Assembly: GCA_021801925.1 (NCBI GenBank)
Contig: JAKABH010000002.1
Span: 4,560-68,559, forward strand
DNA length: 64,000 nt
Reading direction: 5' to 3'
From: Thermoplasmata archaeon
GTDB taxonomy: Archaea > Thermoplasmatota > Thermoplasmata > Lutacidiplasmatales > UBA184
Made by a program: the position numbers and the translations under genes
Part shown: piece by piece, positions 12,162 to 64,000 of the stretch
Numbering within the stretch: position 1 is the first letter of the stretch
Layout of the letters: every line of letters begins with the position of its first letter
The notes under the pieces: model-generated
What the model saw: only the letters and a program-made list of their open reading frames with translations
Databases searched by the model: none
Told to the model about the DNA's origin: nothing

Positions 12162-12389
12162 TCAGCTAAGATGTACTGCCGAGCCGCTCAGACGACGCTG
12201 AACCATGACCGAGACGAGGACGCCTACCGCCCCGAATGCAATCAAGCCCGGCCCGAGCAGCGACGCCGGAAACAGCAACAGGGCCAGCAGCCCTGCGGTG
12301 TCGGCAACTACGACCCAGATGACCCCAATGACTCTACAAGTTTTCCACCATGCACTCGTCTTGCCGAGGTTCCGGGGCAAAGGATTCAT
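12162..12389 (-). CDS. Possible small two-TM membrane protein
   Basis: Two hydrophobic stretches (VIGVIWVVVADTAGLLALLLF, LIAFGAVGVLVSVMV) in the AT-richer spacer between two IS. No homology recognised. Confidence 0.3.
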   Translation of the reverse strand: MNPLPRNLGKTSAWWKTCRVIGVIWVVVADTAGLLALLLFPASLLGPGLIAFGAVGVLVSVMVQRRLSGSAVHLS

Positions 12390-12556
12390 CCCTCCCTCAT
12401 GAAGCTCACTTCAGTCGGAGTTGGATGCTCAATCAGAACCCGTAAGGGGCGCCGCCACACCACAGACCCCATGCGAAGTAGACTGTCCAACTCCAGCAGT
12501 ATATCCACCAGCAACTCCCCAAGCTAATCGAATCGCCTAGAATCGTAAAACGGTTT

Positions 12557-13844: not shown

Positions 13845-15036
13845 GGGGATGGCCGTCGGGGCCCCCGATGGGTGGGAAAGGGACGCGGTCCCGGCCGCGA
13901 TCGGCAGGCGCCACCCGCGAGGCTCTGGCCGCCGCGGCCCGCCGCCTCCCGCCCGGGCACAGCGGCCCACAGCCAACGAGCTACCCGATCTTCCGGTCGG
14001 CCCGCACCCCTCCACCGTTCGTCCGACGCCGGCAACGGACCCTCGGATCCCTGGGGTCGTTGGCCGGTGAGTGGTCGCACTCGGGCGGGGCCCCCCCCGG
14101 TGGCGCGCGAACGGCGGGGTCGGCCGGGAGAAGCTCTCGTGGGCTGCCTCGGGGAGAAATTTCGACCGGGGCGCCTGCGATAGCCGCGCGGGCCCTCCAA
14201 TCGAGCGCCCGAGGTTCACGGGCGCGGAACGGAACACGGGCTCGGATGCGCCGAGCGTCGCCGAGCGGGCGCCCGCCCTGCCCACGCGGATCTTGGGGCC
14301 GTAGCGCTCGCGCCAGGATCTCGATCGGCTGCGAGATCGCCCCCGCGGGTCGACCCCGGCCCAGCGATTCAGAAGGCAACGCGACTCGTACTCGGCCGAA
14401 AGTACTCCGCTGGCTTCTCCCTCCGGCGATGTCGAACCCAGCCGACCACGTGCCGTCCGCTCCCCCCGCGCCGGCCCGCAAGGTCTGCTATCTGAGCCGT
14501 CGGCGGGGATGGACCGACCCGGCGAGCCCCCATCGCCCGGTCTCGGAGGTCAACCTCCTCGCCGTCTACCAGGGGCATGCGATGTGGACGCTGCAGACGA
14601 CGTGGGCCTGGGCGTTCGGCACGATGATCCCCCGGGAGATCGAACGGGCCTACGTGAACGCGAGCGCCCGGGTGCCGATTTCGGAAGGGGAGGTCAGCCT
14701 GCTTCGGCTGGTCGCGGAACGTCTCGGCGTTGAACTGCGGGTCGTCGACTGACCGCCCGGCCCCGCGCCCGTCCGTACCGGGTCCACCCCCGGGCTCCCC
14801 CCGTCCGTCCCTCGCCAGTCTCGGGCCATCGCCGGCGCTCCGTCAGATGCCGGGCCCTACCCCCGTCGCACGGAGCCGTCCGGGGGTGACCGACGGCGTC
14901 TCGATCGCCGGTCCATCCGTCCGAGTGGGGGGGCGCCGGCCCCCCGGGGGCGCGACCTACGCCTTCGACGTCCGTACGGGGGGCCGCAGTTTGGACCTGC
15001 TGGTTTAGCCCGCCGAGCCTTGGGAGGCCGGATGCC

Positions 15037-37510: not shown

Positions 37511-37699
37511 TCAGAGGTAGTGGGAGAAGAGGAGGATCGCCACCAGGGCGATCGTCCCGTAGAGCAGATAGGTGTAGTTCCGCCGGCTGCGCTCGAGCTC
37601 GGCCCGCTTCTCGGCGCAGGCCGCACTGCACGTCCACTCGTCCGGCGCGCACGGCCGGCCGCAGCTGCGGCAGTGGCGGTGGGGGATCACGGCGGCCAC
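37511..37699 (-). CDS. DUF2116-type Zn-ribbon protein with C-terminal TM helix
   Basis: CRSCG...CSAAC cysteines, C-terminal YLLYGTIALVAILLF, GTG start. Confidence 0.7.
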   Translation of the reverse strand: MAAVIPHRHCRSCGRPCAPDEWTCSAACAEKRAELERSRRNYTYLLYGTIALVAILLFSHYL

Positions 37700-37723: not shown

Positions 37724-40567
37724 TTAGCGTTGTGCCCCCCGGCCGCGGGCGGCCGGGCGGCGGCGTCCCGTCGTCGGGCTCCCCGTCAGGTCCGGGTCGG
37801 GCGGGGTCGGCGGGAACTCCTCGGTCTCGAGAAACGGCTCCGACCCCTCCGGGTCTCCGCTCCGGGGCTCCGGGACGTCGACGTCGTCGGCGGTCCGCCG
37901 ACCGGCCGGCGTCTCGTCAAGCTCCGGCACGAAGCCGGCGCCGGACTCCGAGAGCTGGCGGACGAGGTTCATCCAGACCTTGCTCTGGGTCGTCATCGTG
38001 TGCTCGAGGCGTCGGCGGAGGACGGCCTGCTCGTCGCGCAGCTCCGTCTCGACGCGGCGGAGCTCGCGGCCGAGGTCGCGGCGGAGCTGGCCGAAGCGGG
38101 CCTCGGTGTCGTCGGAGCGGGCGAGCATCTTCTCGATCTCCTCGATCCGCACCCACGTCTTGCGGACGAGCGGGAGCATCTTGTCGGAAAGTACCTGCGT
38201 GCGGCGGTCGAGTTCGTCCAGGTCCCGCCGGACCTTCGCCTCCATCGTACCGATCGCCTCCGCCCGCTCGGCGAGCTTCTGCTCGACCGCATCGAGGCGG
38301 TCCGCGTCCGGGCCCCGGTCGCGCGCGAGGCGCGACTCGAGCTCCCCCATCGCGCGGAGGTAGTCGCGCCGGGTCTCCTCGGCGGCCCGCTCGACCCGCT
38401 CGCGGACCGCGGCGTCGAACCGGGTCGAATCGATCGTCCGGGCGAGGGCCTGGTCGACCTCCCCCTTGAGCCGAGCGAGGAGCTCGACGTACTTCGCCCG
38501 CTCCTGATCCCCCTCCTCCCGGAGCTTCTGGTCGAGGTACGATTGCATCCGGACCTGGAGGCCGGCGAGCGATTTCGACTGGGTGTCGGCCATCTCGGCG
38601 AGGCGGGCCTCGCGCTCGACGTCGCTCCGATGCACGGATTGGGCGAGCCGCTCGTCGGTCGCCGCCCGGGCCTGGGCCAGCTCGTGATCGATGCGGGAGG
38701 CGGCTTCCTTCGCCCGCGTCTCGACGACGACGTCGAGGCGCGCCTCGAGATCCTTCGCCCGGCCTTCGACGAGCGCCGCCAGCCGCTGCTCGAGCTCGCG
38801 CCCTTCCTTCGCGCGCTTCGTATCGAGCTCCTGGGCGAGGCGGTCGACGATCGCGCGCACGTTCGCCTCGACCTGCTCGCGCAGGGCGGTACCCTGCTCC
38901 TTCACCTCGCGGAGCTCGAGGTCGAGCTGGGCCGCCAGCGACGCCCGGAGCTCCTCCTCCGACATCGCCCCGCGGGCCGCCGCCTCCTGGGCGATCCGAT
39001 CGAGCTCGCTGCGGAACGACGCCGTCCACTGCTCGGAGGCCGCCCGGACCGCCTGCCGCGCCAGCTCGGGAAGGCCGGCGATCGACGGGTCGACCGCGGC
39101 GCGCACCCGTTGTTCGACGGCGCGGCCGAGCGCCGCCTCGTCCGCGACCGGCCGGGCCTCGAGCGCCGCCAGCCGGGTCGAGAGGTCGTGGCGGCTCTGG
39201 GCGAGCGCGCGGGCCGCGCCCTCGCTCGCCTCGGCGAGGCGGGCGTCGAGCGTGGAGCGCAGCCGGTGCTCGACCTCCTCGGGGAGGGCGGCCGGGGGCT
39301 CCGCCGGCGGGGTCGGGGCGTGCACGGACGGGTCGTTCTGGACGGGAACGGGCACCTCGCCGGCCGGGGAGGCGGCCCCGTCGACCTCGACCGGGGCCGC
39401 GAGCCAGGGGGGGAGCGGCGCGGCGGCCGCGGAGACCGGGTCCCCCGGCGGCGCGGTCGACGGCGCGGGCACCGCCCCGCCGCTCCGGGGCGAGGCGGCG
39501 ACGTATTCCTGGGCACGTCGGGCCGCCTCCCGGCTCGTCGGCACCGTCCGGCCCCGGGGCCGGCTGAGCAGGAGGGCCGCCGTCTCCATGGCGGTGCCGA
39601 TCCGCCACATCTCCTTGCGACGATCCCGCCCGGCCTGCCGATCCGGGTCGGTCAATAGGGCGCCGAGGCGGGGCCCCTCGACGAGGTCGACCCGCCGGGC
39701 GATCTCCGCGAGGCGATCGTCCGCCCGGTCGCGGGCGTACTGCAGCACGAGCGGGAGGGCATCCTTGCTGGCGCGGGCCGTCGTCGGGCGGGTGAGGTCC
39801 CGGAGCGTCACGGACGCCGCGTCCCAGCCGGCGACCCGCTTCTGGTGCCGCTCGCCGGCCGCCTCGCCTTTCGGGACGCGCATCACCGCCAGGGCAAGCG
39901 GCAGCTGTTCGGTGAGCTGGTGGAGGTCGACCTTCGCCACCGGCAGGAAGTACGGGAAGACGAGGACGGCCCCGAGGGCCACGAGGGCCGTCGGAAGCTC
40001 GGCGACCAGCTGCAGGGCGACGCGGTTCACGGCCTCCCACTGGTCGGAGGCGATGAGGACGACCGGCTCCGTCGACCCCCGGTGGAAGAGGAACCCCTCC
40101 CCGACGCCCTGGTAGACCGACTGGTCGGGGTCGGCGGCGGGCCGTTCGTCGGCCGATCGGCCGCCCATCGTCGCGTGCGCCCGGAGCACGGTGGCGTTGA
40201 AGTCGCCGCTCGCGACGAGCCGGGCCGTGTCGAAGACGAGGGTCTTCATCCCGATGCGGGGGCGGTCCTCGGTGGAAAGGAACATCCGGCCGACGCACGT
40301 GTAGCGCCCCCCGGCGGCCGGGTAGAGGAAGAGGTTCGGATAGTAGGAGAGCGGGGAGGCCGGATCGGGGTCCCAGTAATCGTGCGTGTCGGCGACGTTG
40401 ACGGTGAGGTTGCCGACGATCCGGATCGTCTCGAGCGTCTCGCGCCGGCCCGGGAACTCCTCCGGGATGGTCGTGTATCCCGGGCTCTCCGCCTCGTTGT
40501 CGACCTGCCGGCACCAGACGACGGCGACCGGGGCGTGGCCGGCCGCGGCCGTCTCCGAGCCCCGCAT
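37724..40567 (-). CDS. 947-aa protein: globular N-terminal domain + Pro/Ala linker + ~460-aa coiled coil + acidic tail (function unknown)
   Basis: This is the last 947 codons of the 1707-aa ORF. ATG 40567 overlaps the upstream stop (TGATG). Composition changes from R/G/P noise to protein-like exactly here. The long E/R/A/L helical region runs from EVEHRLRSTLDARLAEA to VWMNLVRQLSES. Confidence 0.8.
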   Translation of the reverse strand: MRGSETAAAGHAPVAVVWCRQVDNEAESPGYTTIPEEFPGRRETLETIRIVGNLTVNVADTHDYWDPDPASPLSYYPNLFLYPAAGGRYTCVGRMFLSTEDRPRIGMKTLVFDTARLVASGDFNATVLRAHATMGGRSADERPAADPDQSVYQGVGEGFLFHRGSTEPVVLIASDQWEAVNRVALQLVAELPTALVALGAVLVFPYFLPVAKVDLHQLTEQLPLALAVMRVPKGEAAGERHQKRVAGWDAASVTLRDLTRPTTARASKDALPLVLQYARDRADDRLAEIARRVDLVEGPRLGALLTDPDRQAGRDRRKEMWRIGTAMETAALLLSRPRGRTVPTSREAARRAQEYVAASPRSGGAVPAPSTAPPGDPVSAAAAPLPPWLAAPVEVDGAASPAGEVPVPVQNDPSVHAPTPPAEPPAALPEEVEHRLRSTLDARLAEASEGAARALAQSRHDLSTRLAALEARPVADEAALGRAVEQRVRAAVDPSIAGLPELARQAVRAASEQWTASFRSELDRIAQEAAARGAMSEEELRASLAAQLDLELREVKEQGTALREQVEANVRAIVDRLAQELDTKRAKEGRELEQRLAALVEGRAKDLEARLDVVVETRAKEAASRIDHELAQARAATDERLAQSVHRSDVEREARLAEMADTQSKSLAGLQVRMQSYLDQKLREEGDQERAKYVELLARLKGEVDQALARTIDSTRFDAAVRERVERAAEETRRDYLRAMGELESRLARDRGPDADRLDAVEQKLAERAEAIGTMEAKVRRDLDELDRRTQVLSDKMLPLVRKTWVRIEEIEKMLARSDDTEARFGQLRRDLGRELRRVETELRDEQAVLRRRLEHTMTTQSKVWMNLVRQLSESGAGFVPELDETPAGRRTADDVDVPEPRSGDPEGSEPFLETEEFPPTPPDPDLTGSPTTGRRRPAARGRGAQR

Positions 40568-41733
40568 CACGCCCCCTGGGTCGCCCGACGCTCGAAGATC
40601 CGCTCGCACGCCCGCGCCAGCGGGAGCGTCGTGTTGACCATCACGGGGACGCCGAGGGTCGGCGAGCCGACCGTCGGGGCCTCCTCGCCGCCCTCGCCGA
40701 TCAGCATCGGGTGGCCGCCGCCCGACGAGACGGCGCTCGACACCAGGAAGACGTCCTGCTTCACGGAGATCCCGCGTCCCTCCTGGGCGACCAGGATCGT
40801 CCCCATGGCGCCGCCGTCGCGGCGGAGGAGGAAGTCGGTCGGATCGAACGTGCTCCGATAGGAGCGCTCCCGGACCGACTGCTCGATCTCCCCGTAGAAC
40901 TCCGGGAGCTTGTCGGCCTTCGACACCGCGATGACGAGGGGCAGGTTGCGGGTCCGGACGTACTTGAAGACGCCTCGGGCGAGGTTCACCTGCTGCGCCT
41001 GCTCGTGGAGCGACGCGAGCGCCGGGGAGAGGAGCAGGATCACCGCGTCGGCCCCTTGGACGAATCGACCGAGCAGCGTGAGCCCGCGGCGCCAGAGATC
41101 GCGGCGATCGGGCCGCCAGGAGTCGAAGTGGGGGATGACGCGGCAGTTCCGTTCGGCGACCTCCGCCTCCTCCGAATCGATCCAGAGCCGGTCGTAGGTG
41201 AAGTAGTCGGCGATGATCCCGCCGGCCTCGTCGATCGTCTGAAGTTCCATCGGTCGGGAGCCGACCTCGCCGTCCGGCGCGCCGTAGCGGAACCGCATCC
41301 GCATCTCGACGAACTGGTTGAACTTGGTCGGGAGGGGGTACTTCGTGAGCACGCCCTGCTCCTCGCGCCCGGCGGCGAGCTCGACCCAGAGCTTCTTGCG
41401 GTCCTCCATCGGTCGGTTTACGTAGTAGCGGGTCGTCGTCTCGAGGCCCCCTTCGGGGTCGGTCGGGTCGGTCGTCTCGTACGTCGTTTCCTCGAGGGCG
41501 ACGTCGTGCTCCAGATCCCCGAACAGCGGCAGCGCGCCGCGGTCCGGTCGGGCCGGCACGTAGAGGATCGGCAGGTTGAGCCCAAAGTGGCCGGCGAGGA
41601 ACCGGAAGTACGTCGTCTTCCCCGAGGCGGGAATGCCGACCACCGCGATGCGGGCCGATTCCGGCGTCTTCTTCGTCTCGCGCTTCGTCCCCGGCGCGCG
41701 CCGGCTCTTCGTCGTGACCTTGACCTCTCCCAT
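40567..41733 (-). CDS. Atypical P-loop GTPase-like protein
   Basis: G1 GIPASGKT (res 33-40), G3 DEAG (168-171), G4 SKAD (271-274), G5-like SSA (332-334). About 125-aa insertion between G1 and G3. Confidence 0.8.
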   Translation of the reverse strand: MGEVKVTTKSRRAPGTKRETKKTPESARIAVVGIPASGKTTYFRFLAGHFGLNLPILYVPARPDRGALPLFGDLEHDVALEETTYETTDPTDPEGGLETTTRYYVNRPMEDRKKLWVELAAGREEQGVLTKYPLPTKFNQFVEMRMRFRYGAPDGEVGSRPMELQTIDEAGGIIADYFTYDRLWIDSEEAEVAERNCRVIPHFDSWRPDRRDLWRRGLTLLGRFVQGADAVILLLSPALASLHEQAQQVNLARGVFKYVRTRNLPLVIAVSKADKLPEFYGEIEQSVRERSYRSTFDPTDFLLRRDGGAMGTILVAQEGRGISVKQDVFLVSSAVSSGGGHPMLIGEGGEEAPTVGSPTLGVPVMVNTTLPLARACERIFERRATQGA

Positions 41734-41748: not shown

Positions 41749-43248
41749 CTACCGCATCTCCGCGAGGCAGACCTCGATGAAATCGAGGGCCCCCTCCGCC
41801 ACCGGCCCGGCCGCGGCGAGCTCGAGCCGGGCGTCCTGGAGCCGGCCGAAGACCGCCTCGACCGCCGCCTCGTGCTGGATCGCCGCGTCCTGGAGGTCCG
41901 CCTCCCCGGCGAGCTGCGTGAGCTGGTAGGTCCCCCGCAGTTCCATCAGCCGGGCGAAGAGGTCGAGCACCCGGTGGCGGACCGCGGCATCGGCCCCGCC
42001 GAGCCGATGCTCCGTCTCGTCGATGAACCGGACGAGCGTCTCCGTCTCCTTGTCGTTCTGCATTCGGGCCTGGAGGAGCGCGAGCCGCCGCACGACCCGG
42101 GCCCGCGCGGGCTCGGGGATCTGCTCGACCTCGACCCACGCCTGGATGAGCGAACGGGCCGCCTCCACGATCGCCCGGCGGGCGAACTGGACGCGCGCCT
42201 CCCAGTAGAGCCGGGTCACCGGCGGGAGGACCCCGCCGGAGCGTCGGACGAGCTCCAGGGCCCGGTCGAACTGGCCCGCGAGGTAGGCGTCGACGATCTC
42301 GCCCAGCGGGCCGTACCGCTCCGAAAGGTTCGCCGGAGCCGGGCCGGATCCGCTCGGGGAGGCGACCACCCCGACCTCGAACTCCGGTGCCTCGGTATAC
42401 GCCTCCTCCGCGTTCGGGCCCACCGTCGCGAGGCGCGAGACGGTCGCATGCTGCTGCGGCTCCTTGAGCGCCCGCGCCGCGCTCGCCGCGTGCCGGGCGA
42501 GTTCCTCCGGGTGGAGATCCTCGATCGGCCGGGCCTCCTCGTACTCGACGTCGAGGAAGGCATGGACCATCTGGGCGAAGAGGGCACTGCCGGTCGTGAC
42601 CTCCTGGTAGCTGAACGCCGCCGGCAGCCCGAGCGCCTGGGCCCGGTGGGTCAGCCGTCCGAGGAACTCCTGCATCCGCGCCCCGTCGACGCCCTTGTCC
42701 CGCTCCATGCCGCTGCCGATCCCGATCACCCGGAGCGAGAGCGCCGACTGCGCGGGCAGCATGTACTCGACGAGATCGGGGCGTCCGTTCGGCGGGGCAT
42801 CCGCCCCCGGGGCCGCGACGGCGAACCGGGTCGATGCGTTGTCCCACCCGTCGGTGACGAGGACGAGGGTGCCGTGGACGCCGCGGGAGCCGATCCGCAG
42901 GAGGTCGGCCCCGGCGGCGAGGGCGTCCCAGATCGCCGACCGGCCGCTCGGGGCGAGCATCGAGATGAGGTTCTCGATGTACGGGAGCTGCTCGGGGTGG
43001 ATCTCCGCGAGCGGCACGGGCGCCCGGACGCTCTCGGTGAACGTGACGAGGCCGAACCGCGCCCCCGAATGCGCCGCGTCCTGGAGGATCCGGAAGACCG
43101 CGGTACGGGCGACCTCGATCTTCGGTCGCTCGCCGCGGGGGGAGTCGGGATCCGGCAGCGGCGCGAGCATGCTCTTCGACAGATCGAGGACGAGGACGTT
43201 CCGTTCGCGGCCCAGTTCGGCGGGAGGAACGTCGGTGGGACCTTCCAT
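41749..43248 (-). CDS. von Willebrand factor A (vWA) domain protein with helical C-terminal half
   Basis: MIDAS residues D22-L-S-K-S26, T in VTFTES, D in LVTDGWDN. The C-terminal ~270 aa are helical-looking. Confidence 0.85.
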   Translation of the reverse strand: MEGPTDVPPAELGRERNVLVLDLSKSMLAPLPDPDSPRGERPKIEVARTAVFRILQDAAHSGARFGLVTFTESVRAPVPLAEIHPEQLPYIENLISMLAPSGRSAIWDALAAGADLLRIGSRGVHGTLVLVTDGWDNASTRFAVAAPGADAPPNGRPDLVEYMLPAQSALSLRVIGIGSGMERDKGVDGARMQEFLGRLTHRAQALGLPAAFSYQEVTTGSALFAQMVHAFLDVEYEEARPIEDLHPEELARHAASAARALKEPQQHATVSRLATVGPNAEEAYTEAPEFEVGVVASPSGSGPAPANLSERYGPLGEIVDAYLAGQFDRALELVRRSGGVLPPVTRLYWEARVQFARRAIVEAARSLIQAWVEVEQIPEPARARVVRRLALLQARMQNDKETETLVRFIDETEHRLGGADAAVRHRVLDLFARLMELRGTYQLTQLAGEADLQDAAIQHEAAVEAVFGRLQDARLELAAAGPVAEGALDFIEVCLAEMR

Positions 43249-54908: not shown

Positions 54909-56129
54909 TCATTCCCCCGTCTCGGCCCCGGAGAGCAGCCGCATCAGCCGCGCGAGGATCTCGTCCGCCGTCGCGAGGTCCCGCGCGCGCAGCGCCTCGG
55001 TCGCGCTGCGGATCTCCATCGCCGCATCCCGGGCGGTCTCGCTCTCCGGCGGCAGGGTCCGCACCCGGCCCGCGAGCGCCCGCGCCTTCTTCAGCAGCCG
55101 GTCGAGCGTCTCGCCTTCGCTCTCTTCCGCCTCCGACGACCGGGGGGACGGGGGCGGCGGCGAGAGCTCGGCCGCCTGGCGGAGCATGGTGATCTGGGCC
55201 CGGAGCTCCCGCACGCTCTGGATCGCCTCGGGCAGGCGGCCCTTCTTGAGGTGGCGGCTCGCCTCCCCGTGCAGCCGACGGGCGACGGCGCTCGGCACGT
55301 GTTCGTCCGGGTACCGGTCGAGCGCCTGGGCGTGGCGCCCGAGTTCCTCTTCGAGGGAGGAGGGGATCGCCTCGTGGAGGAGCATCAGCGCCTGGGCGGC
55401 GTCCTGGGCGAGCTCGTCGAGGGTCTCCTCGGTGAGTCGCGGCTGGGCCAGCCGGTCGCGGATCTGCTCGATCTCCCCGGAGATCTCCCCCAGGGGAAGG
55501 CCGAGTTCGGTCGCCTCGTTCCGCAGGCTCTCGATCTGGCCGAGGAGCCCCTGGAGCCCCTTCCAGTCGGACTCGAGCTGATCGAGCCGCCGCTCCGCCT
55601 CCAGGAGGCGGGCGGTCGCCTCCTCCCGATGGGTCGCCTGCAGCTCTTCCGCGATCCGGTCGAGCTCGGGGCCGAGGGCGAGGCGGATCCCCTGCTGGAG
55701 GAGGGCATCCCGACGGGCGATCAACGACCCGTAGCGTCGGTCGAGGAGTTCGTCGAGCTCCCGCTCGAGGCGCGCCTGGGCGCCCCGCAGCGTCTCGAGC
55801 GCCTCCCCTTCGCGCCCCTCCGCCTCGCTGAGCGCCGCCTGGCAGAGCTCGCTCGTCGCGTCCGGCAGCGATCGACCGAGTTCCCGAACGATCTCCATCT
55901 TGCCGCGGAGGTCGCGGCTGATTCGATTCGTGAGCTCGGCCTGCGGCGACGCGGCTCGGGCGGGCCGGCGCGGCCCGGCCGGAGCGCCGGGGTCGCCGTT
56001 CGGGGCCGCCGGCACCGGCTCGATGGAGCGGAGCCCCTCGAAGGCGAGGGCGGTCGGGAATCCGCAGACGGTGCAGTGCTGGCTGGTCGCGCTGATCGCC
56101 TGTTCGCAGATGGGGCAGTTCGACGGCAC
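54909..56129 (-). CDS. Zn-ribbon protein with long helical body (function unknown)
   Basis: GTG start. CPICEQ-x10-CTVCG ribbon, then about 330 aa of helical sequence. Confidence 0.65.
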   Translation of the reverse strand: MPSNCPICEQAISATSQHCTVCGFPTALAFEGLRSIEPVPAAPNGDPGAPAGPRRPARAASPQAELTNRISRDLRGKMEIVRELGRSLPDATSELCQAALSEAEGREGEALETLRGAQARLERELDELLDRRYGSLIARRDALLQQGIRLALGPELDRIAEELQATHREEATARLLEAERRLDQLESDWKGLQGLLGQIESLRNEATELGLPLGEISGEIEQIRDRLAQPRLTEETLDELAQDAAQALMLLHEAIPSSLEEELGRHAQALDRYPDEHVPSAVARRLHGEASRHLKKGRLPEAIQSVRELRAQITMLRQAAELSPPPPSPRSSEAEESEGETLDRLLKKARALAGRVRTLPPESETARDAAMEIRSATEALRARDLATADEILARLMRLLSGAETGE

Positions 56130-56197
56130 GTCGCCAACCTTGGACCGAAGAGACGTTCGCCGTGGGTTTAATTGCTTGGGGTCCGCCCCCCTCCGGG

Positions 56198-56446
56198 TTA
56201 TCCGCCGGAAAACGTCGGGACGACCAGCAGGCGGCCCCCCCTCGGGATCGGCTCGTCCATCGGGACCGGCCGGTCGTCGACGAGGACCACGGCGCCCTCC
56301 GGCGCGAGGCCGACCGCCCGCACCGCATCCCGGACCCGGCCTCCGGCCGGGAAGGGGATCCGGTGCGTCGCCGAGCGGCCGGCGCGGACAACCTCGATCA
56401 CGACAGCGCCGTCCCCCGGGGCGTCGGTCGCGTCGCGGCCGTCCAT
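56198..56446 (-). CDS. ThiS/MoaD-family ubiquitin-like protein (SAMP-like), C-terminal Gly-Gly
   Basis: 82 aa ending ...GGRLLVVPTFSGG*, the beta-grasp family C-terminus. Confidence 0.75.
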   Translation of the reverse strand: MDGRDATDAPGDGAVVIEVVRAGRSATHRIPFPAGGRVRDAVRAVGLAPEGAVVLVDDRPVPMDEPIPRGGRLLVVPTFSGG

Positions 56447-56562
56447 GTCGGAGCCGGGAGGCGGCCGGTTCCTTATCCGTTGCCGTTCCCGCCCGACCCG
56501 CCGAGGTTCGCCACCCTCGTCTCCGTCCGACTCCCCCGCCGACCGGAGCGGCCCAGGGGAGG

Positions 56563-56648
56563 CGCTGAGGGGGAGATTTGAACTCCCGCGACGGAAACCG
56601 TCACCAGATCTCGAATCTGGCGCCTTGGCCGAGCTAGGCTACCTCAGC
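56563..56648 (-). tRNA. tRNA-Ser (anticodon CGA), class II with long variable arm
   Basis: Hand-folded. Acceptor GCTGAGG/CCTCAGC, D stem GCCT/AGGC, anticodon stem CCAGA/TCTGG with loop TTCGAGA, variable-arm stem GACGG/CCGTC, T arm GGGAG-TTCAAAT-CTCCC. 86 nt. Confidence 0.9.
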
Positions 56649-56849
56649 ACCCTATCGCGGGGAGTTGCGCCCGCTTTTAGCGATTTGCGGGCAGCCGAGC
56701 TCCGCCGGACTCGCCGCGTGCGACCGAACATTCGCCGCTCTCGCCCGCCGTACTTGTCTCGACTCGAACCTCCGACCGACTGCCCAACCGGGTGAGTTCC
56801 TGACTCCTGCGTAAATAGGTTGTTATCCGGGATCCCTCTGCCTCTCTGC

Positions 56850-57888
56850 ATGGGCCGATGGGCACAGCGCCATCGGGGTGCCGCCACCCTCGAAGAACGT
56901 CGATTGACGGGCCTCGCGCTCCTGCACTCCGGCCACTCGCAGGCCGACGTCGCTCGCCGCCTCGGAGTTACTCCCGTAGCGGTGTGTCACTGGAAGAGTG
57001 CCCTCGACGAAGGCGCCCCGCGGCGCTGCGCGCCATCCCTCGGCCCGGCCGGCCCCCGCTGGTGTCGAAGGACCACCAAGCCGCTCTCCCCGAGATGCTC
57101 GCGAAGGGAGCGCTCACCTACGGGTTCTCCACCGACCTCTGGACGAACCCACGCATCGTGAAGGTCGCCGAGGCCCAGTGGGGAGTTCGGTACTCCGAGA
57201 CAGCGATGTGGCGGATGCTCAAGCGCCACGGACTCTCCTGGCAGCGGCCTCGGAGGCAGGCCCGAGAGAAGGACCTCCGGGCCGTCTACAACTGGCGCCG
57301 TCGCTCCTGGCCTCGCTCTAAAAAAAACCCCGACACCGAAGAGCCGTAGTGGTCTTCGTGGACGAGAGTGGGTTCTCTCTCATCCCCTATGTCGCGAAGA
57401 CCTGGGCCCCCGTTGGCCAAACCCCGGTGCAGATCCACCAAGGACTGTGTCCGAAGTTCTCGGCGATCAGCGGCGTGACTCCCCCATGGAAGCTCTACAT
57501 CCAGGTCCACAAGGACACGATCGCCACCGACCAGCCTGTGGAGTTCCTCCAGCATCTCTTGCGACACATTCGCCGGCGACCCATCATGGTCTTCTGGGAC
57601 GGAGGTCGTCCCCACCACTCTGACGAGACTCGCGCCTTCCTCCGAGCCCACCCTCGGATCGAGGCGCAGCGGTTTCCGGGCTACAGCCCCGAGCTCAACC
57701 CCGATGAGTAGGTCTGGAGGCACCTGAAGAACCACGAACTCGCCAGCTACGCTCCGCACGACGTGAAGGAACTGAGCCGGGAACTCCGGCGTGCGGTCGT
57801 TCGAATGCGGGTCCGGCCCAAGCTGCTCTGTTCGTTCGTCGCGGCGACTCACCTCTACGATTCAGCACCTGACGACGGTGCGGGATGA
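56850..57888 (+). pseudogene. IS630-family transposase, disrupted (one indel, one A8-run frame change, one in-frame TAG)
   Basis: The HTH (frame of 56820) joins the frame of 56858 near 57015-57030 (...LDEG|PAALRAIPRPGRPPL). The frame changes again at A8 57320-57327 into VVFVDESGF. TAG at 57709-57711 lies inside ...SPELNPDE*VWRHLKN. Confidence 0.8.
57320..57327 (+). repeat. A8 homopolymer (slippery run) inside the IS630 remnant
   Basis: The only long homopolymer I saw in the window. A -1 slip here joins ...WPRSKKK to PRHRRAVVVFVDESGF. Confidence 0.85.
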
Positions 57889-58388
57889 GACGAACGGAGG
57901 ATTCTCCTCGGTAAGTGTTAAGCTATTTCGTCCGGCATCAGTAACTCGGTCCGGGCCGCCGCCCGGCCATCCGCGAGGTGACTCCGAGCTCTTGGAGAAG
58001 GTCTGGGGGCTACTGGAGGAACGTCACCTTGACTGGTCGCAAATCGCCCAGAACCGCCACGTCCCGGCAAGTAGCTGCCGAAAGTGGGTCTCCTACGCAG
58101 CTCGGGCTAAGGCGGTTACAGCCAACGGCCCGGTGACCAGGGCCTCCCCGAAGGGAGCCTGAAGACTGACCGCGGCGCCTCAATGGCGAAGGCTATTTGC
58201 CGCGGCCGTTGGGCCGGCCACCCCCCTACTGCCTAGACCCTCAGGAAGGCGGTCCGAGCGCGTGGAGAAACACGGCGGAGCCCGTCAAGGGGGTCGATTT
58301 GGGAGAAGCCAAACTTCTCAGATGAAGCGTGTTACTTCGAACTACACGAGCGACACTATCAAGTAGCAAAGCATCCGTGGCATCCCGC

Positions 58389-58712
58389 ATGAAGGGTGTC
58401 CTCTCTGTCCTGGGTAAGAAGAGGGCTCTGGACGTCTTGGACTTCCTTGAGTCCGAACCGCGGGGCGCACGATTCATCGACGTCCAACGATGGGCGGTGA
58501 ACGGGGTTCCATCGGTCACGACAGGCCTACTCAAGGACCTCAGGCAGTGCGGCGCAGTCGTCCGCGATGGCTCCGGGGACCTGCCCAGATACCGGATCAC
58601 CGACGCTGGAAAGGAGGCACGAACACATCTACACCAAGCCCTCGCCGCGCTGCATGGTGCGCGAGACAAGCGCCAGCCTCGTCAGGATTTGAGGAGAAGA
58701 ATGGGAGGGTGA
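58389..58712 (+). CDS. Small winged-helix DNA-binding protein
   Basis: LGKKRALDVLDFLESEPRGARFIDVQR...LKDLRQCGAVVRD...RYRITDAG follows a wHTH (HxlR/MarR-like) pattern. Trimmed to ATG 58389. Confidence 0.6.
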   Translation: MKGVLSVLGKKRALDVLDFLESEPRGARFIDVQRWAVNGVPSVTTGLLKDLRQCGAVVRDGSGDLPRYRITDAGKEARTHLHQALAALHGARDKRQPRQDLRRRMGG

Positions 58713-59494
58713 ACTGCGTGAAGGACCAGTACTTCGGTGACGTGAACGATTATCGCAAGTTCGGGCTTCTAAGGGGGTTGACCAGTGAGAGAGACCTTCG
58801 GCTGTCTATTTGCTGGGCACTGACCCGCTCAGATGGGCGGACTGACGGGTCCAAAACTCAGTACCTCGAGAACCCGAGCATCTGGAGGAGATTCGATCCC
58901 GAGCTCTTTGCCTTCCTTCGGCAACAGGTGGTCGATCGCGGCGACCGCCGAGTGGGTGCCATCGAAGGCACGCGAGTGCTTGGAGACTGCAACTTTTTCA
59001 GCGAGACCCTCCCGCGAGAGGAAGCGGCTCGAGACGGCTACTTCGAGAGACTTTGCGACCTTGCCGCCCGCACCGATCTCGTGTTCTTCGACCCAGACAA
59101 TGGCCTAGGTGTCAAGTCGACACCGAGAGGATGCCCGAACTCTGAGAAGTACGTGTACCCGTCGGAACTGGCGTCCGTCTTCTCACTGGGACCATCGATT
59201 CTCCTCTACCAACATTTCCCGAGGAGGCCACGAACCCAGTTCACCCAATGGTTGGCACGCTCACTTTGTGAGTTGCTTGGAAGCGAACGGGCGGTGGCCT
59301 TCATTACACCCCACGTGCTCTTCCTCCTCGTGCCGAACCGTCGTCACTGGGCCGCACTGAGGGCGGGCGCCGAGCGGGTCGCTGGGAGATGGAGCGGCCA
59401 GATTGGAGTGGTCCACCTCAGTCGACTTGGGAATCTCCGCCCGGTCCCATTCGATGCCTTTGGGCCCCGCGAAGCCGCCCCCGTTGCGGCGTGA
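58709..59494 (+). CDS. Hypothetical protein with GDVNDYRKFGLL and FFDPDNG motifs
   Basis: GTG 58709 overlaps the wHTH stop (GTGA). 261 aa, protein-like composition. No family recognised with confidence. Confidence 0.6.
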   Translation: MNCVKDQYFGDVNDYRKFGLLRGLTSERDLRLSICWALTRSDGRTDGSKTQYLENPSIWRRFDPELFAFLRQQVVDRGDRRVGAIEGTRVLGDCNFFSETLPREEAARDGYFERLCDLAARTDLVFFDPDNGLGVKSTPRGCPNSEKYVYPSELASVFSLGPSILLYQHFPRRPRTQFTQWLARSLCELLGSERAVAFITPHVLFLLVPNRRHWAALRAGAERVAGRWSGQIGVVHLSRLGNLRPVPFDAFGPREAAPVAA

Positions 59495-59505
59495 GATCGC
59501 CGGGC

Positions 59506-60189
59506 CTATGCGCTCCAGAGCGGTCGAACGAGGCTTGATGGCTGTTTCCACCCTGCGCAGACTCTAACCTCCGCGGACGCCGCAACCGATAGCACGTTTT
59601 CCACCCCCCGGTCCACCGCCACCTCGACGACCTGTCCGGATTCAGGGAAGCGATCTATTGCCTGGAACGTGTCCGCCCCCCTCGGTGGCGGATCCTCCCC
59701 GTTAGCGCGCCTGAAAGTGCTGCCGGAGTTCATCGAGGTGAGCGCGATCCGGGCGGAGCACTGATCGAGCAGCAACCGCGTGTTCACCTTCAGGACGACG
59801 TGTTCAAAACCTCTGTAGAACTTCGCTCCGAGAAGCATCTCGAGCCGAGACCACTCCGCCCAGAAGAACACCTTGGCATTGATCAAGCGATACCAGTCCT
59901 CCACAGACATCCCCTGCTCCAGCAGGGGGCGGAGCTCGGCCGGGGGCATGGGTTGCTGGTCCCGGATCCAAGCAGGGGGAAGGCCTGTCTTCTCGATCTT
60001 GACCATCGCTGGCCTCCACCTGGACTCGATCAGCTCCCTGCGCCCTCCAGTGTATCCGTAGAGGTCAAGCAATGCGGAAGTGCTGAGGAGCCCCCTGGCC
60101 TGTATCCCGGGCCAGTTCGGGACCTCGGCCATATGGTAGAGAGTCGGGTAGCGCTCTATCAGCACCCCAATCCTCAAGCTCCCTCCCAA
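59506..60189 (-). CDS. Putative ADP-ribosyltransferase-fold protein (DarT/DUF4433- or DUF7002-like)
   Basis: N-terminal LYHMAEVPNWPGIQARGLLSTSALLDL and C-terminal QVVEVAVDRGV resemble the H...E elements of DarT-type ARTs as I remember them. Start is TTG 60189 (16-nt overlap) or GTG 60165. Confidence 0.55.
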   Translation of the reverse strand: MGGSLRIGVLIERYPTLYHMAEVPNWPGIQARGLLSTSALLDLYGYTGGRRELIESRWRPAMVKIEKTGLPPAWIRDQQPMPPAELRPLLEQGMSVEDWYRLINAKVFFWAEWSRLEMLLGAKFYRGFEHVVLKVNTRLLLDQCSARIALTSMNSGSTFRRANGEDPPPRGADTFQAIDRFPESGQVVEVAVDRGVENVLSVAASAEVRVCAGWKQPSSLVRPLWSA

Positions 60190-61784
60190 GCTCTCCGGTC
60201 GATGACGCTGCGGTGGTTGAACCCGACTGCCACCATTGTCACGGGAACTCCCGCGACGCGGCCCACCTCGTCGATGAACTGTATGGTCTCCTTGGAGAGT
60301 TGGTCGAAGCGGACGGCCCTCCTATTTCCCGAGGTGATGTAGTCAGCAAACGTCAGCGCGATGTCGGTCGCGCCGTTCAGGAGCGAGGCTCGATGCAGGA
60401 GAGCCCAATCGAACTCGCCGACCCTCCTGCGGCGATTCGTGGTCGAAGTTCGCTCGTGCTGTCTGAGTTCATCGACCGGAATTCCAGACCGCCTGGAGAT
60501 CTCGGCCCAGCCGATCTCGTTCAGTGGACCTGACGTGCCTCCCTCGGGACTCTGCACTCGGATAGGGTAGGTTCGGACGACCATCAGAACGCGACGTACC
60601 CACTTCGGTGGTATGCCAGCCTCGGCAAGACACCCTCCTGCCGTCGTGTCGCGGCTCGTGACGAACGGAAACTCCCCGTGGTAGATGCTCAGCCCGGTCC
60701 CCTGGGTCCCTTCAAGGAGGACGCGCCTGCCGTTGAGGTAGGCATCCTCGAGCTGTGTGAAGGCGTCTCCTAGAAAGGGCTTGAGCTCCGGGACCGCCCC
60801 AGCCAGACGGGTCGTGGAGTTTCGCCCCATTATTCGGCGCGCGGTCGCAGCGCCGGTGCCGCTCCCCGTCGAGCCGATATCTTTCTTCAGCTTCAGCTCG
60901 TCATGGATGTCCTTGGGGTCGATTACCATCGCATTGCGGTCGATGACGAGCCGTTGGGCGTCCACCTGACAGTCGGCGATCTCCTGGAGCAGCTTTGGGA
61001 TGTTGAGGACGGCCCCCGGGCCAATCAGCAGCTTCGCTAGGGGGTTGTACCTTGTCCCAGAAGGAAGCTGGTGGTGCGTGTACGGTGGATTGCCGAAGAC
61101 CTTGTGCCCCGCGTTTGGCCCCCCCACGCGGACCAACAGGTCGTACTCGCGCGCGATGTAGGATGCGATTTGGCCCTTTCCCTCGCTACCGAATTGTCCG
61201 CCGACGACGACGTCCACGTACCCTAGCCCCTTGTGGGGGTGCGCCCGGATCAGGCTGGCGGCGCGAGCGGCGACATCCGCCTCGGTACAACGGTCCGTGT
61301 CGATGACCGCGTCCGCGAGGTCCCGGAGCGTCTCCACTTGGGCCTCCGTGGGATCGGCCTTCGCCTGGGCATATGTAATGGCCATGTCCTTCGATTGCTG
61401 ACGGCGCTTAGCAAAACGCATGGCGAGGACCTCAGGAGGGGCCGTCAGGTGGATGTGTACGACTTTGGACCCAAACGCCTCCCGGAGGGCCCTCACTTGG
61501 TTCTCTATCCGCACGGCGTCCACCACGATGCACGTGCCTCTGTCCTCTTCGCCCAACCATCGGTAGAGCTCCTGCACCACCCATCTTCCCCCGGTCGACT
61601 TGTCCAGGTCCGCGCCTCGTTTCTGGAGCAGCCTTCGGTCGGAGATTGGCACCCGCATGATCCGCTTCGTTAGAGACTCCTTAGTCCTGAACACCGACAT
61701 CTGGTAGCGGTCCTCCAGGCGGCGGGCAAGCGTCGACTTGCCGGAGTAAATCTGTCCCGATAGGGCGATGATTCGGTCAGCCAC
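60174..61784 (-). CDS. Fusion protein: N-terminal P-loop kinase-like domain + C-terminal adenylosuccinate synthetase (PurA)-like domain
   Basis: Kinase P-loop ALSGQIYSGKSTLA (res 7-20). AdSS motifs GGQFGSEGKGQ, GGPNAGH, GSTGSGTGAATARR, LLEGTQGTGLSIYHGEFPFVTSRDTTAGG, TSTTNRRRRVGEFD. GTG start overlaps the upstream stop by 8 nt. Confidence 0.85.
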   Translation of the reverse strand: MADRIIALSGQIYSGKSTLARRLEDRYQMSVFRTKESLTKRIMRVPISDRRLLQKRGADLDKSTGGRWVVQELYRWLGEEDRGTCIVVDAVRIENQVRALREAFGSKVVHIHLTAPPEVLAMRFAKRRQQSKDMAITYAQAKADPTEAQVETLRDLADAVIDTDRCTEADVAARAASLIRAHPHKGLGYVDVVVGGQFGSEGKGQIASYIAREYDLLVRVGGPNAGHKVFGNPPYTHHQLPSGTRYNPLAKLLIGPGAVLNIPKLLQEIADCQVDAQRLVIDRNAMVIDPKDIHDELKLKKDIGSTGSGTGAATARRIMGRNSTTRLAGAVPELKPFLGDAFTQLEDAYLNGRRVLLEGTQGTGLSIYHGEFPFVTSRDTTAGGCLAEAGIPPKWVRRVLMVVRTYPIRVQSPEGGTSGPLNEIGWAEISRRSGIPVDELRQHERTSTTNRRRRVGEFDWALLHRASLLNGATDIALTFADYITSGNRRAVRFDQLSKETIQFIDEVGRVAGVPVTMVAVGFNHRSVIDRRAWEGA

Positions 61785-63159
61785 CGGACCAGTCCTCCGA
61801 GAGGCAGCTCTGGCGCTCCCCCTTCGCAGACGTTGCGCGAGAAGTCCTGGCCGGCGGCGTGTACACCGTCACCGGGACACCCCGGCTTGATAGATGCTCG
61901 TCAATCAGCTCGGAGATGACGCTCCAGTTTCCCCCAGCCATACCCGCCCCGATGCGCGGCATGTGAATGCTCGCTCCCGCCCGGAGCGCCTCATCGCGAA
62001 CCGTTGCGAGGCAGGCGTTGAGGGCGGCGTACCTGATTCTGGGTTTGTCGCTGGGACCGTACCCATGCTGGGCCACCATGCTCGCGATGGATAGTCCCTC
62101 AGAGACTTGGGCGATCCGGGTCCTCCCGAGCGACAGGTTGCGGTGACCCTCGCTCGCCCAGCGCCGAAAGTCTTCCTGCGCTTGAGGGAACTTCCCTCTG
62201 ACCGCCTTCGAGAACGCCCCTCCCCAGTTCGCGGTCTTGTCGTTCACGACCTGGGCGACTATTTTTGGGCCTGCCCCGCGGGGTTGCAGGGCGTCCCCAC
62301 GGAGCTCTAGAGTGGTGCTGGGCCGGTCTTTCGAGGGCACCGTCATGCGGCAGAGGCCCAACACTCTGGGAAGGGCTTTCCCGGGATAGGGGGGAAGGCC
62401 CACGCACTCCCAATAGAGAGAGGGTACCACTCCTTTGGAGGGCTCGCGCCCTTTGGCGGTGCAACCGACGGCAATGCACTGGGAGAACACCGAGCCCTCT
62501 AGGAGTGCCCCAGGGCCGAACGGAGGTGCCCCCGCACGGGAAGTGACCACGTAGTCTGCCCGGAAGGTTCGCTCTCCGACCCCTTCGTTCACTCGAGAAG
62601 CCACGGCCACGGCGCACGGGTAGCGGGCCGAGCGAACGAGGCGTAGGGCCGCCGCCTCTACCGAGACCTGGCACGCCTCCTGGATCTTGAGAAGGGAGTC
62701 GATGGTGGGCGGAGCGGCGGGATCCACCGCGAAACCGGTGGGCATGAGGATCTCCGACGCCGCTATGTTGCACAGCATCTCGAGTTCCCAGTCGTCGCCC
62801 CGGGGGTTCGCCTCTCTGTTGCGAACCGTCTGGAGATGGTCGTCGAACAGCGTGTGCGCTATCTCATGGGCGAGAGAGAAGCGGATCCTGTTCCGGGGCC
62901 GGTTCGGATTGAACTCGATCTCTGGATGCTGGCCTCGGGGCACAATCTTCGCGTCCAGGACATCCTCCTTGGGGACCACGGAGATGCCGAGGAGCTCCGC
63001 GAGGCGGAACGGGTCGAACGGAGGCCCCTCCCACCCCCTTTGTACTGCCTCAAGTACGACGTCTCTGGCCCTCCGAGTCACGGCCACGACAGGGTCTCGA
63101 CCCTCGGCCAGCCTCTTCACGCTGGGGTTGGTCCAAACAACGGTAGTTTGTGGCGCCAT
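61777..63159 (-). CDS. Fusion protein: ImmA/IrrE-type Zn metallopeptidase + middle region + C-terminal Macro domain
   Basis: FSLAHEIAHTLF (HExxH, 62854-62868) with downstream ELEMLCNIAASEILMP. Macro motifs IVAQVVNDKTANWGGAFSKAV and IHMPRIGAGMAGGNW (about 61855-62307). Confidence 0.85.
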   Translation of the reverse strand: MAPQTTVVWTNPSVKRLAEGRDPVVAVTRRARDVVLEAVQRGWEGPPFDPFRLAELLGISVVPKEDVLDAKIVPRGQHPEIEFNPNRPRNRIRFSLAHEIAHTLFDDHLQTVRNREANPRGDDWELEMLCNIAASEILMPTGFAVDPAAPPTIDSLLKIQEACQVSVEAAALRLVRSARYPCAVAVASRVNEGVGERTFRADYVVTSRAGAPPFGPGALLEGSVFSQCIAVGCTAKGREPSKGVVPSLYWECVGLPPYPGKALPRVLGLCRMTVPSKDRPSTTLELRGDALQPRGAGPKIVAQVVNDKTANWGGAFSKAVRGKFPQAQEDFRRWASEGHRNLSLGRTRIAQVSEGLSIASMVAQHGYGPSDKPRIRYAALNACLATVRDEALRAGASIHMPRIGAGMAGGNWSVISELIDEHLSSRGVPVTVYTPPARTSRATSAKGERQSCLSEDWSGG

Positions 63160-63528
63160 GCTTGGTCACACTCGTACGCGGATTTCCCTGCTTCGAAGGT
63201 CCCCGCTACGTCGACCCAAGAGGAGACTCGGGCGAGCGTGACTCGCAGCAAACCCTCCCGTGCTTCTCGGTTCGGCCCTTGTCTTTGGTCCCCCCCATCG
63301 AACTATGTCCCCCTGCCCTCCACCATAATCGCCAAGAGGATTAACGCTCAGCGATGGTGTGTCGCGGCCTACTCGATAGGACCGAAATCCAGGGAGGGAA
63401 AGGCAACGGACCCGATTCGAGAAACGGCCCCTGAGAAGATGAATTCCGGGGACACCCCCTGAATCAAGGTCCCACCGAGGGCCACATTCCCGCCGCACAT
63501 CCGGCCATCTTGCGAGAAACGTGCTCGA

Positions 63529-63729
63529 TTATCGCCGTCCGCGGCGGCTTCCGCTCCCTGAGAAGAAGTTGATAACGATTACCACCGCTGTCAGCCCGAA
63601 GACCGCAGCGACGACTTCCACGATGTAGCCTGTGAACTCAAGGAGGACTGACGGGAGGAAGAACGCCACGAAAATGAAACCTACAATCAATACGAGAAGC
63701 ACCGTGACGATTCCGTCCCACTTGTTCAT
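63529..63729 (-). CDS. Possible small two-TM membrane protein (66 aa)
   Basis: IVTVLLVLIVGFIFVAFFL and VVAAVFGLTAVVIVINFF, with a basic C-terminus. AT-richer codon usage like the surrounding island. Confidence 0.4.
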   Translation of the reverse strand: MNKWDGIVTVLLVLIVGFIFVAFFLPSVLLEFTGYIVEVVAAVFGLTAVVIVINFFSGSGSRRGRR

Positions 63730-64000
63730 TCAGTTGCTCCCATCGGGCCGATTTGGGGCTGCTGGAACAGGGGGACGGCGGTCATGACGTGAGCTCGGCG
63801 GTCGAAGCGGGCAGGCGCTCGTCCTTCCACCAGCGGCGCACGACCCGTCTGGCTCTCCATGCTCGCAAATCGCCGGTGTAGGTCACGTCCATGTGTTTTC
63901 GGTTAACGACCCCTTCCACTCGAGCCGAGTAGGCTCATGAGGGGCGTCCCACGTCAGTGCGATGTCGCATCCGTCGAAGAAGACACGAGTCCGTCACCGC

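Follow-up and report, generated by a model that had tools for sequence, protein, structure and literature searches.

Genes at the locus

The window analysed here is the whole of a 64,000-nucleotide stretch of archaeal DNA with a G+C content of 72%, taken from a Thermoplasmata genome of 1.57 Mb that is 94.7% complete. Its minus strand carries an operon of three genes, and the product of the middle one, a GTPase-like protein that we call P0001, is the subject of this analysis. The three genes, in order of transcription, are as follows.

41749..43248, minus strand: gene 1, encoding a 499-residue protein with an N-terminal vWA domain (Pfam and alignment)
40567..41733, minus strand: P0001, the GTPase-like protein of 388 residues, middle gene of the operon
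37724..40567, minus strand: gene 3, encoding a 947-residue head-plus-rod protein

The operon is translationally coupled, and the TGA stop codon of P0001 and the ATG of gene 3 overlap by one base (TGATG). Within P0001 the following features can be distinguished, all of them again on the minus strand.

41653..41733, minus strand: N-terminal tail, residues 1-27, basic, variable and modelled with low confidence (alignment and AlphaFold model)
41614..41637, minus strand: G1 or Walker A motif GIPASGKT, residues 33-40, invariant
41329..41577, minus strand: family-specific insertion of about 85 residues (53-135), from helix 1 to switch I (AlphaFold model and conservation)
41419-41502, minus strand: acidic, Thr-rich, conserved β-hairpin within the insertion, residues 78-105 (modelled strands 78-87 and 97-105)
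41326..41328, minus strand: candidate G2 threonine, T136, in the invariant LTKYPLPTK (alignment, AlphaFold model and hhalign)
41221..41232, minus strand: G3 or Walker B motif DEAG, residues 168-171, closing the predicted β2-β3 hairpin (140-151, 159-169)
40912..40923, minus strand: G4 variant SKAD, residues 271-274, directly after the strand PLVIAV
40732..40740, minus strand: G5-like SSA, residues 332-334, after the strand VFLV
40654..40731, minus strand: variable Gly-rich loop, residues 335-360, followed by a GVPVMVNTT motif and a C-terminal helix

Conservation of the nucleotide-binding motifs

An earlier reading of this DNA, hereafter the original prediction, had described P0001 as a GTPase-like protein with unusually spaced motifs. 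Translation of 40567-41733 places G1, DEAG, SKAD, SSA and the acidic, Thr-rich stretch at exactly the residues which that prediction had assigned to them. Conservation was assessed through alignments of 21, 50 and 150 sequences, the 150 homologues being 55-91% identical, and it is to this largest set that the following statements apply. The motifs GIPASGKT, DEAG, SKAD and SSA are all invariant or nearly so: no variation is seen at G33, S37, G38, K39, T40 and T41, at D168, E169, A170, G171 and G172, or at S271, K272, D274, S333 and A334. Two threonines of LTKYPLPTK, T130 and T136, are likewise invariant.

Each of the G motifs is preceded by a predicted hydrophobic β-strand, as in GTPases. In the AlphaFold model described below, G1 has strand 29-33 before it and helix 39-52 after it, while T136 lies four residues upstream of the β2 strand (140-151). 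Comparison by hhalign pairs the YPLPT containing this threonine with the G2 motif YPFTT of Obg/Drg-type GTPases. At G3 the context is MELQTI-DEAG, in which the DxxG ends a hydrophobic strand; the only other DxxG in P0001 is a DPEG at residues 92-95, in a hairpin loop. The G4 motif departs from the usual [NT]KxD in having the invariant S271 where Asn or Thr would stand, and locally, in hhalign or hmmscan, the SKAD region aligns with the part of EF-1alpha, aIF5B and GTP_EFTU that holds NKxD. Since the Asp of G4, D274, is invariant, P0001 most likely binds a guanine nucleotide; the use of ATP instead of GTP, which the original prediction had raised, appears unlikely from the sequence.

There is no catalytic Gln after the DxxG, the residue following DEAG being the invariant G172, and the P-loop has Ala at the position where K+-dependent GTPases have Asn. 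By analogy with HAS-GTPases and dimerisation-activated GTPases, P0001, possessing neither the Gln after DxxG nor the P-loop Asn, probably needs a partner or dimerisation for hydrolysis.

The N-terminal tail is longer, and rich in Pro and Lys, in other genera. At the other end, the final 50 residues or so had been characterised as Gly-rich: this description fits residues 335-360, but the last 28 residues (GVPVMVNTTLPLARACERI...) consist of a conserved motif and the C-terminal helix.

Predicted structure

A first AlphaFold run, for which 21 homologues at some 80% identity were the input, produced a predicted local distance difference test score (pLDDT) of 40 and was unusable. The second run used the 150-row alignment, to which orthologues from six other genera had been added, and gave a model with a pLDDT of 71.9 and a predicted template modelling score of 0.76. 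From the N-terminus, this model has strand 29-33, G1, helix 39-52, the β-hairpin 78-87/97-105 and a low-confidence loop at 114-136. Strands 140-151 and 159-169 then run to DEAG, and are followed by a short helix (174-179), an extra segment (180-207), helix 208-225, strand 230-235 and helix 242-261. The C-terminal part comprises strand 266-270, SKAD, helix 277-288, a further extra segment (290-327), strand 328-330, SSA, the Gly-rich loop and helix 370-385. Each motif sits where its expected strand ends, and the elements follow the canonical order of GTPases.

Strands 140-151 and 159-169 are separated by a variable loop of 7 residues with no intervening helix, their pairing being taken from the order of the elements. 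Indeed, from the end of helix 1 to the strand leading into DEAG the model contains no helix, with residues 114-136 of this region having pLDDT values below 50. Two long consecutive strands before the DxxG, without a crossover helix, would fit the β2/β3 hairpin of the TRAFAC class.

Comparison of the model with the PDB using Foldseek gave TRAFAC-class NTPases as 48 of the 50 top matches. The best was G-alpha (E=5e-3, probability 0.87), and kinesin Eg5 and the IRG proteins Irga6, Irgb6 and GM4951 were also present. When BFVD was searched, the two best matches were an EF-like GTPase and a Rab-like GTPase. The fold class is thereby pointed to consistently but weakly. A comparison with TRAFAC GTPases by structure prediction had been proposed at the outset; now carried out, it finds the motifs at canonical places and TRAFAC-class proteins as the top fold matches.

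The insertion between helix 1 and switch I

The original prediction placed an insertion of about 125 residues between G1 and G3. The spacing between the two motifs is indeed 127 residues, but about 40 of these represent canonical helix 1, switch I, β2 and β3, so that the actual insertion amounts to some 85 residues (53-135). Its length is identical in all homologues. Column entropy is 0.44 for the hairpin (78-105) and 0.52 for the region 106-127; G1 and the switches lie at 0.12-0.15, and the variable parts reach 1.4 (Gly-rich loop) and 1.7 (N-terminal tail). The hairpin is in this sense roughly as conserved as the core of the protein. Residues 81-104 make up the acidic, Thr-rich stretch, EETTYETTDPTDPEGGLETTTRYY. 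The possibility had been raised that the insertion is a lineage-specific, low-complexity expansion absent from homologues, which does not agree with its constant length and with the low entropy of the hairpin. Alignment and model together mark it instead as a conserved, predicted β-rich module. Searched by itself, it has no match in Pfam or in the PDB, and the proposal that it serves as a lid or effector-binding domain is purely inferential.

Sequence searches

Searches with native P0001 yielded nothing beyond the P-loop in Pfam, NCBIfam, PADLOC and PHROGs. The same was true of PDB sequences, whether a single sequence or a profile was used, the best look-alikes being FeoB and Der. When the whole genome was scanned with PF01926 (MMR_HSR1), four other genes were found and P0001 was not among them. 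Relatives of P0001 itself are plentiful. A word-indexed search returned 353 homologues. Those listed, 120 in number, have lengths of 386-390 residues and identities of 79-100% to P0001; all come from 'Thermoplasmata archaeon', and the names given for them are 'hypothetical protein' or, in one case, 'GTPase domain-containing protein'. An exhaustive phmmer search of 1.84 billion representative proteins gave 13 clusters, all of the same family, with the most distant full-length member 57% identical.

Constructs from which the insert had been deleted were more informative. Pfam MMR_HSR1 aligned to them from G1 through strand 4 with 12.3-16.5 bits (best E=0.009), and their best Pfam matches, all below threshold, were to GTPase families only, GTP_EFTU matching at the SKAD region. 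Profiles were also compared using hhalign, with an alignment of 30 MMR_HSR1 GTPases taken from relatives as the target. Here the insert-deleted profile reached a probability of 91% (E=1e-6), the aligned regions being G1, YPLPT with YPFTT, DEAGG with DxPG, and ADxvILLLsP with strand 4. Of the controls, AAA+ gave 58-72% (E=3.5e-5 to 1e-4) and SIMIBI 1-2%. With the full-length profile and single GTPases of the same genome, only P-loop or NKxD stretches were aligned by hhalign.

The sequence evidence favours a GTPase and is not decisive alone. Considered together with the topology of the model and the invariant G4 and G5, it leads us to regard P0001 as very likely a GTPase. The earlier GTPase-like assignment can be given a class, since motif and strand order, the top Foldseek matches and the 91% hhalign probability after insert removal make the TRAFAC type the best reading.

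Distribution and evolution

The P0001 gene occurs in 155 of the 186 genomes of the order. The carriers come from 7 genera of a single family, and the gene is absent from the two sister families of the order in this set. When 401 Thermoplasmata genomes from 104 genera were searched with a profile, full-length matches were again confined to the one family, with nothing but P-loop-length matches outside it. The carriers are archaea of the Lutacidiplasmatales type and include 'Candidatus Lutacidiplasma silvani'; the group, which lives in acid soils, was formerly called TMEG (PMC9287336). In the window's genome the gene is present as a single copy, and no paralogue was found.

The triad of vWA/MIDAS (metal ion-dependent adhesion site) protein, GTPase and head-plus-rod protein lies between a divergent S17e gene and a 62-residue zinc-ribbon/transmembrane gene in the examined genomes of the window's own genus and of genera g18-g20, the only ones in which both flanks were reached. 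In g15-g17 the triad was seen with S17e outside the fetched region, and the downstream flank was seen in g15 and g16 as well. At 10 junctions, plus that of the window, the stop codon of the GTPase gene and the start codon of gene 3 overlap or lie within about 6 nucleotides of each other. Open frames of 1390-1480 residues had suggested a fusion of the two genes, an idea that we discarded on finding a stop codon in all 10 junctions and in the window. The gene 3 head profile was detected in exactly the same 66 of the 401 genomes as the GTPase. Genomically, genes 1 and 3 are obligate partners of P0001. The two had been mentioned in the original prediction as possible sources of a partner GAP or GEF; what the genomes support is the obligate coupling.

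The cassette may also be missing as a whole. In three genomes of the same genus (G076, G005 and G002; loci L128, L129 and L130) it is cleanly absent and S17e is separated from the zinc-ribbon gene by about 170 bp. These genomes are among the smaller ones, at 1.4-1.6 Mb. In a rough five-marker tree, genomes without the cassette are nested among cassette-bearing ones in two places, which would point to the cassette having been lost independently two or more times.

The GTPase is 67-87% identical to its orthologues, a range that may be set beside those of S17e (77-89%), L31e (85-91%) and aIF6 (61-71%). Judged by these figures, the GTPase is conserved about as tightly as ribosomal proteins. The corresponding values for its operon partners are 56-74% (vWA protein) and 42-58% (gene 3).

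The partner proteins

Gene 1 matches the Pfam families VWA_2 (E=1.5e-7, 32.4 bits against a cut-off of 27) and VWA (E=3.8e-6, 27.7 bits against a cut-off of 23.8). Its MIDAS, formed by D22-x-S24-x-S26, S104 and D133, is intact and is invariant in 10 orthologues from several genera. The C-terminal half of the protein is helical. Its last residues (41749-41790, ...ALDFIEVCLAEMR), ending ...CLAEMR, are nearly invariant across genera right up to the C-terminus, and may constitute a docking peptide.

Gene 3 is divided as follows.

39503..40567, minus strand: head domain, residues 1-355, conserved
37724..39502, minus strand: remainder of the gene, comprising a Pro/Ala linker, a helical rod, an acidic/Pro disordered tail and the stop codon

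In detail, the head (about 15-355) is followed by the Pro/Ala linker (356-430), an amphipathic helical rod of about 450 residues (431-880, window 37928-39277) and the disordered tail. Rod length varies two-fold between genera. In g15-g18 (L137-L140) the protein has 560-870 residues, the head and the last 125 or so rod residues being kept and the middle of the rod shortened. The head of g15 is much more divergent, with an E value of ~1e-95 compared to ~1e-165 to 1e-185 elsewhere.

No Pfam family was found for the head in a search with 10 head sequences, Robl_LC7, Longin and DENN being among the families considered, and a profile search gave no match in the PDB. Against 31 Roadblock sequences, hhalign returned probabilities of 0.1-0.3%. 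The identification of the head as GAP1-N or Roadblock was accordingly negative in Pfam, in the PDB profile search and in hhalign. Residues 187-213 of the head (39929-40009) form a conserved hydrophobic stretch, LVAELPTALVALGAVLVFPYFLPVAKV, with a Kyte-Doolittle mean of 2.06 over 19 residues, which could be either a buried core or a membrane-inserting hairpin.

The hydrophobic periodicity of the rod peaks at 3.67-3.74 residues (z=7.1 relative to shuffles), the heptad value of 3.5 having z=2.6. This peak weakens an interpretation of the rod as a classic heptad coiled coil. From its periodicity, the rod may be an amphipathic helix of hendecad type, forming bundles or associating with lipid. One gene 3 orthologue carries a precomputed Pfam Apolipoprotein match.

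Other features of the window

A 62-residue protein is encoded at 37511-37699 on the minus strand, starting 24 nucleotides past gene 3. It has a CxxC...CxxxC zinc ribbon and a C-terminal hydrophobic helix. As it is also found beside S17e in genomes without the cassette, it is probably not part of the three-gene module. Elsewhere in the window, at 8000-14000 and 56000-64000, G+C content falls to 0.62-0.68 from about 0.72-0.75, which suggests islands of foreign origin.

Interpretation

We consider it fairly probable that P0001 founds an unclassified, lineage-restricted family of TRAFAC-class GTPases and is the nucleotide switch of a three-protein module with a cellular function, not one in defence. 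Its G domain would be made up, in order, of β1, G1, helix 1, switch I with T136, the β2/β3 hairpin leading to DEAG, β4, β5 with SKAD, β6 with SSA, and the C-terminal helix. Four family-specific additions would be mounted on this domain, the main one being the acidic β-hairpin module of about 85 residues between helix 1 and switch I. P0001 would act as the switch of an obligate module whose other members are the MIDAS vWA adaptor and the head-linker-rod protein. Whether P0001 binds the head domain of gene 3 may be governed by its GTP state, with the switch regions and the neighbouring hairpin insert making the contact; the head would then be either a regulator or an effector. The MIDAS of the vWA protein might clamp an acidic residue of one partner, for which the invariant Glu/Asp of the hairpin is a candidate. 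From the fixed locus, the single copy, the vertical inheritance and the ribosomal-protein-like conservation we infer an organising, tethering or membrane-associated role in the cell, and not virus defence. A more ambitious version, which we hold to be doubtful, is that a non-Asgard family has evolved or retains a eukaryote-like GTPase machine, with a dedicated, insert-bearing Ras/G-alpha-like GTPase, a regulator or effector head that includes a hydrophobic hairpin, a rod of amphipathic helix tens of nanometres long and a MIDAS adaptor, engaged in membrane tethering or cell organisation and with no described prokaryotic counterpart.

Several observations count against the assignment to a new TRAFAC family. 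All matches to GTPase families fall short of significance, whether the cut-off is curated or conventional. MMR_HSR1 (PF01926) remains below its gathering threshold of 21.9 bits even for the insert-deleted constructs and does not match the native protein at all, and in hhalign the full-length profile aligned with the 30 MMR_HSR1 GTPases at the P-loop only. The AAA+ control gave a noticeable hhalign signal, and TIDE resembles the Walker B pattern hhhhDE. Structurally, no Foldseek match in the PDB has E <= 1e-3, all being >= 5e-3 with template modelling scores (TM-scores) of 0.2-0.3 and root mean square deviations of about 10 Å. The switch I region, 114-136, is of low model confidence, and strand pairing was deduced from the order of secondary structure elements and not from coordinates. 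Finally, some members of the genus do without the cassette.

The resemblance to Walker B raises the question of whether P0001 could be an ASCE-type ATPase, AAA+- or STAND-like, with TIDE (168-169) as Walker B providing the catalytic Glu and with SKAD and SSA as coincidences. The invariance of E169 after a hydrophobic strand would suit such an enzyme, as would the spacing of about 130 residues between Walker A and Walker B, which is appropriate for some ASCE or ABC ATPases, and the 58-72% (E=3.5e-5 to 1e-4) obtained with the AAA+ alignment. Nevertheless, the long-strand hairpin before DEAG in the model, with no helices between helix 1 and it, is at odds with this explanation, and so is the invariance of S271, K272, D274, S333 and A334, where strands 5 and 6 end. 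Among folds, the leading matches are TRAFAC and not AAA+, the GTPase profile is better than AAA+ by about 30-100 times in E-value, and Pfam gives no match to an AAA lid, sensor or Arg finger, AAA matching at the P-loop only. We therefore rate an ASCE ATPase as unlikely. A motor NTPase of the kinesin or myosin type, acting on or with the rod protein, is extremely improbable. It is brought to mind by the Eg5 motor domains among the top Foldseek matches (E=1e-2), by the domain size of about 390 residues with extra β elements from the P-loop helix to switch I, and by the long helical rod of the partner. The TM-scores concerned are only about 0.2, however, and P0001 lacks both the SSR of switch I and the DxxGxE of switch II, having I173 at the Glu position (+5), while it conserves the guanine-recognition motifs G4 and G5 which motors lack. 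Nor does the operon include a filament partner.

Two further explanations are suggested by the neighbouring genes. The order of GTPase, large partner gene and nearby vWA gene resembles that of the NTP-dependent conflict systems of the DO-GTPase/GAP1 or vWA-ternary kind (Kaur et al. 2020, PMC7159879), in which case the GTPase would be a sensor, gene 3 a GAP1-like protein and the vWA protein a co-chaperone. A weak match to DO-GTPase2, over 15 P-loop residues (E=0.06-0.2), points the same way. Yet beyond the P-loop there is no match to GAP1-N, GAP1-M, GAP1-C, GASH or DO-GTPase models, PADLOC is empty apart from a weak gene 3 match (PD-T4-6, E=0.12), and the operon contains no effector domain. Mobility, patchy distribution and fast evolution are usual in conflict systems. 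Here, the locus between S17e and the zinc-ribbon gene is fixed in the window's own genus and in g18-g20, the window's genome has one copy of the gene, inheritance is apparently vertical and the conservation of the GTPase matches that of ribosomal proteins. Vertical inheritance, a fixed locus, strong purifying selection and the lack of effector domains thus argue against a defence system, which we judge improbable. Proximity to S17e, aIF6, L31e, L39e and S19e might alternatively indicate a GTPase associated with the ribosome or with translation. In favour of this can be cited the location in a conserved cluster of translation genes and the fact that the best profile resemblance is to MMR_HSR1 of the Obg/Drg/Nog1 type, including the YPLPT/YPFTT-like G2. 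Several complete relatives, however, cleanly lack the cassette and yet have intact translation genes, and the 401-genome profile search finds it in no other Thermoplasmata family. S17e is transcribed divergently, and a vWA protein and a rod protein of 950 residues as partners do not make the architecture of a ribosome factor. A role in translation is, in our opinion, very unlikely.

Comparison with known systems

If P0001 is indeed the founder of a new TRAFAC family, the P-loop GTPases gain a deep and structurally elaborated family which every current profile library has missed and of which almost all database records are labelled 'hypothetical protein'. Abundant archaea of acid soils and peat would then carry a GTP-switched module of three proteins, conserved like ribosomal proteins. 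The association of GTPase, head-rod protein and vWA-MIDAS protein would offer a defined, expressible system for the study of GTPase switches in the cell organisation of non-Asgard archaea.

With G-alpha and the extended Ras-like GTPases, P0001 has in common the P-loop, a switch I Thr, the predicted β2/β3 hairpin, DxxG, xKxD and SA, all in canonical order. G-alpha is the best Foldseek match and, as the original prediction had pointed out, bears its helical domain at the same site as the P0001 insertion, between helix 1 and switch I. Beyond its site the insert is different: in G-alpha it is a helical domain of 120 residues, while that of P0001 has about 85, is β-rich and is not a helical lid. 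Lying at that site, the insertion would represent an independent example of elaboration of the nucleotide pocket or switch I. G-alpha further possesses RxxT in switch I and DVGGQ with the catalytic Gln, neither of which is a feature of P0001, with its LTKYPLPTK and its DEAGG followed by Ile. The SKAD form of G4 and three further insertions also set P0001 apart, and the match is significant neither in sequence nor in structure (E >= 5e-3, TM-scores 0.2-0.3).

In sequence profile, the closest resemblance is to the MMR_HSR1 (PF01926) proteins Obg, Drg, Nog1 and YchF, with the 91% hhalign probability after insert removal. The alignment sets vGxPNvGKST against VVGIPASGKTT, YPFTT against YPLPT, DxPG against DEAGG, and includes strand 4 (ADxvxLLLxP); both types are without the catalytic Gln. 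P0001 differs from the Obg/Drg type in scoring below the Pfam cut-off, in its missing P-loop Asn, in having Ser in place of Asn or Thr at G4, and in its unrelated inserts and partners.

As regards the operon, the arrangement recalls the DO-GTPase/GAP1 and MoxR-vWA ternary systems, which follow a similar logic of NTPase, large downstream partner and vWA component (PMC7159879). In contrast to the DO-GTPase/GAP1 systems, homology to DO-GTPase, GAP1 or GASH is not detectable in the present module, effectors are absent, and the genes are not mobile and are inherited vertically. The pairings of a small GTPase with a platform regulator, namely MglA-MglB, Rag-Ragulator and Asgard or eukaryotic Rab with longin/DENN, are comparable, in that P0001 is encoded beside a strictly co-occurring protein whose globular head is the obvious candidate for a regulator or effector. 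Unlike MglA or Rab, P0001 is of twice the size and has, in addition, a vWA/MIDAS protein as a third partner and a rod of 450 residues. A small GTPase paired with a vWA-fold partner is also known from Sar1 and the trunk domain of Sec23/24. That trunk has no working MIDAS, whereas the MIDAS of gene 1 is intact, and there is no sequence or fold evidence linking the two. Set beside these systems, P0001 is a lineage-restricted variant of the TRAFAC GTPase placed inside an undescribed three-gene module.

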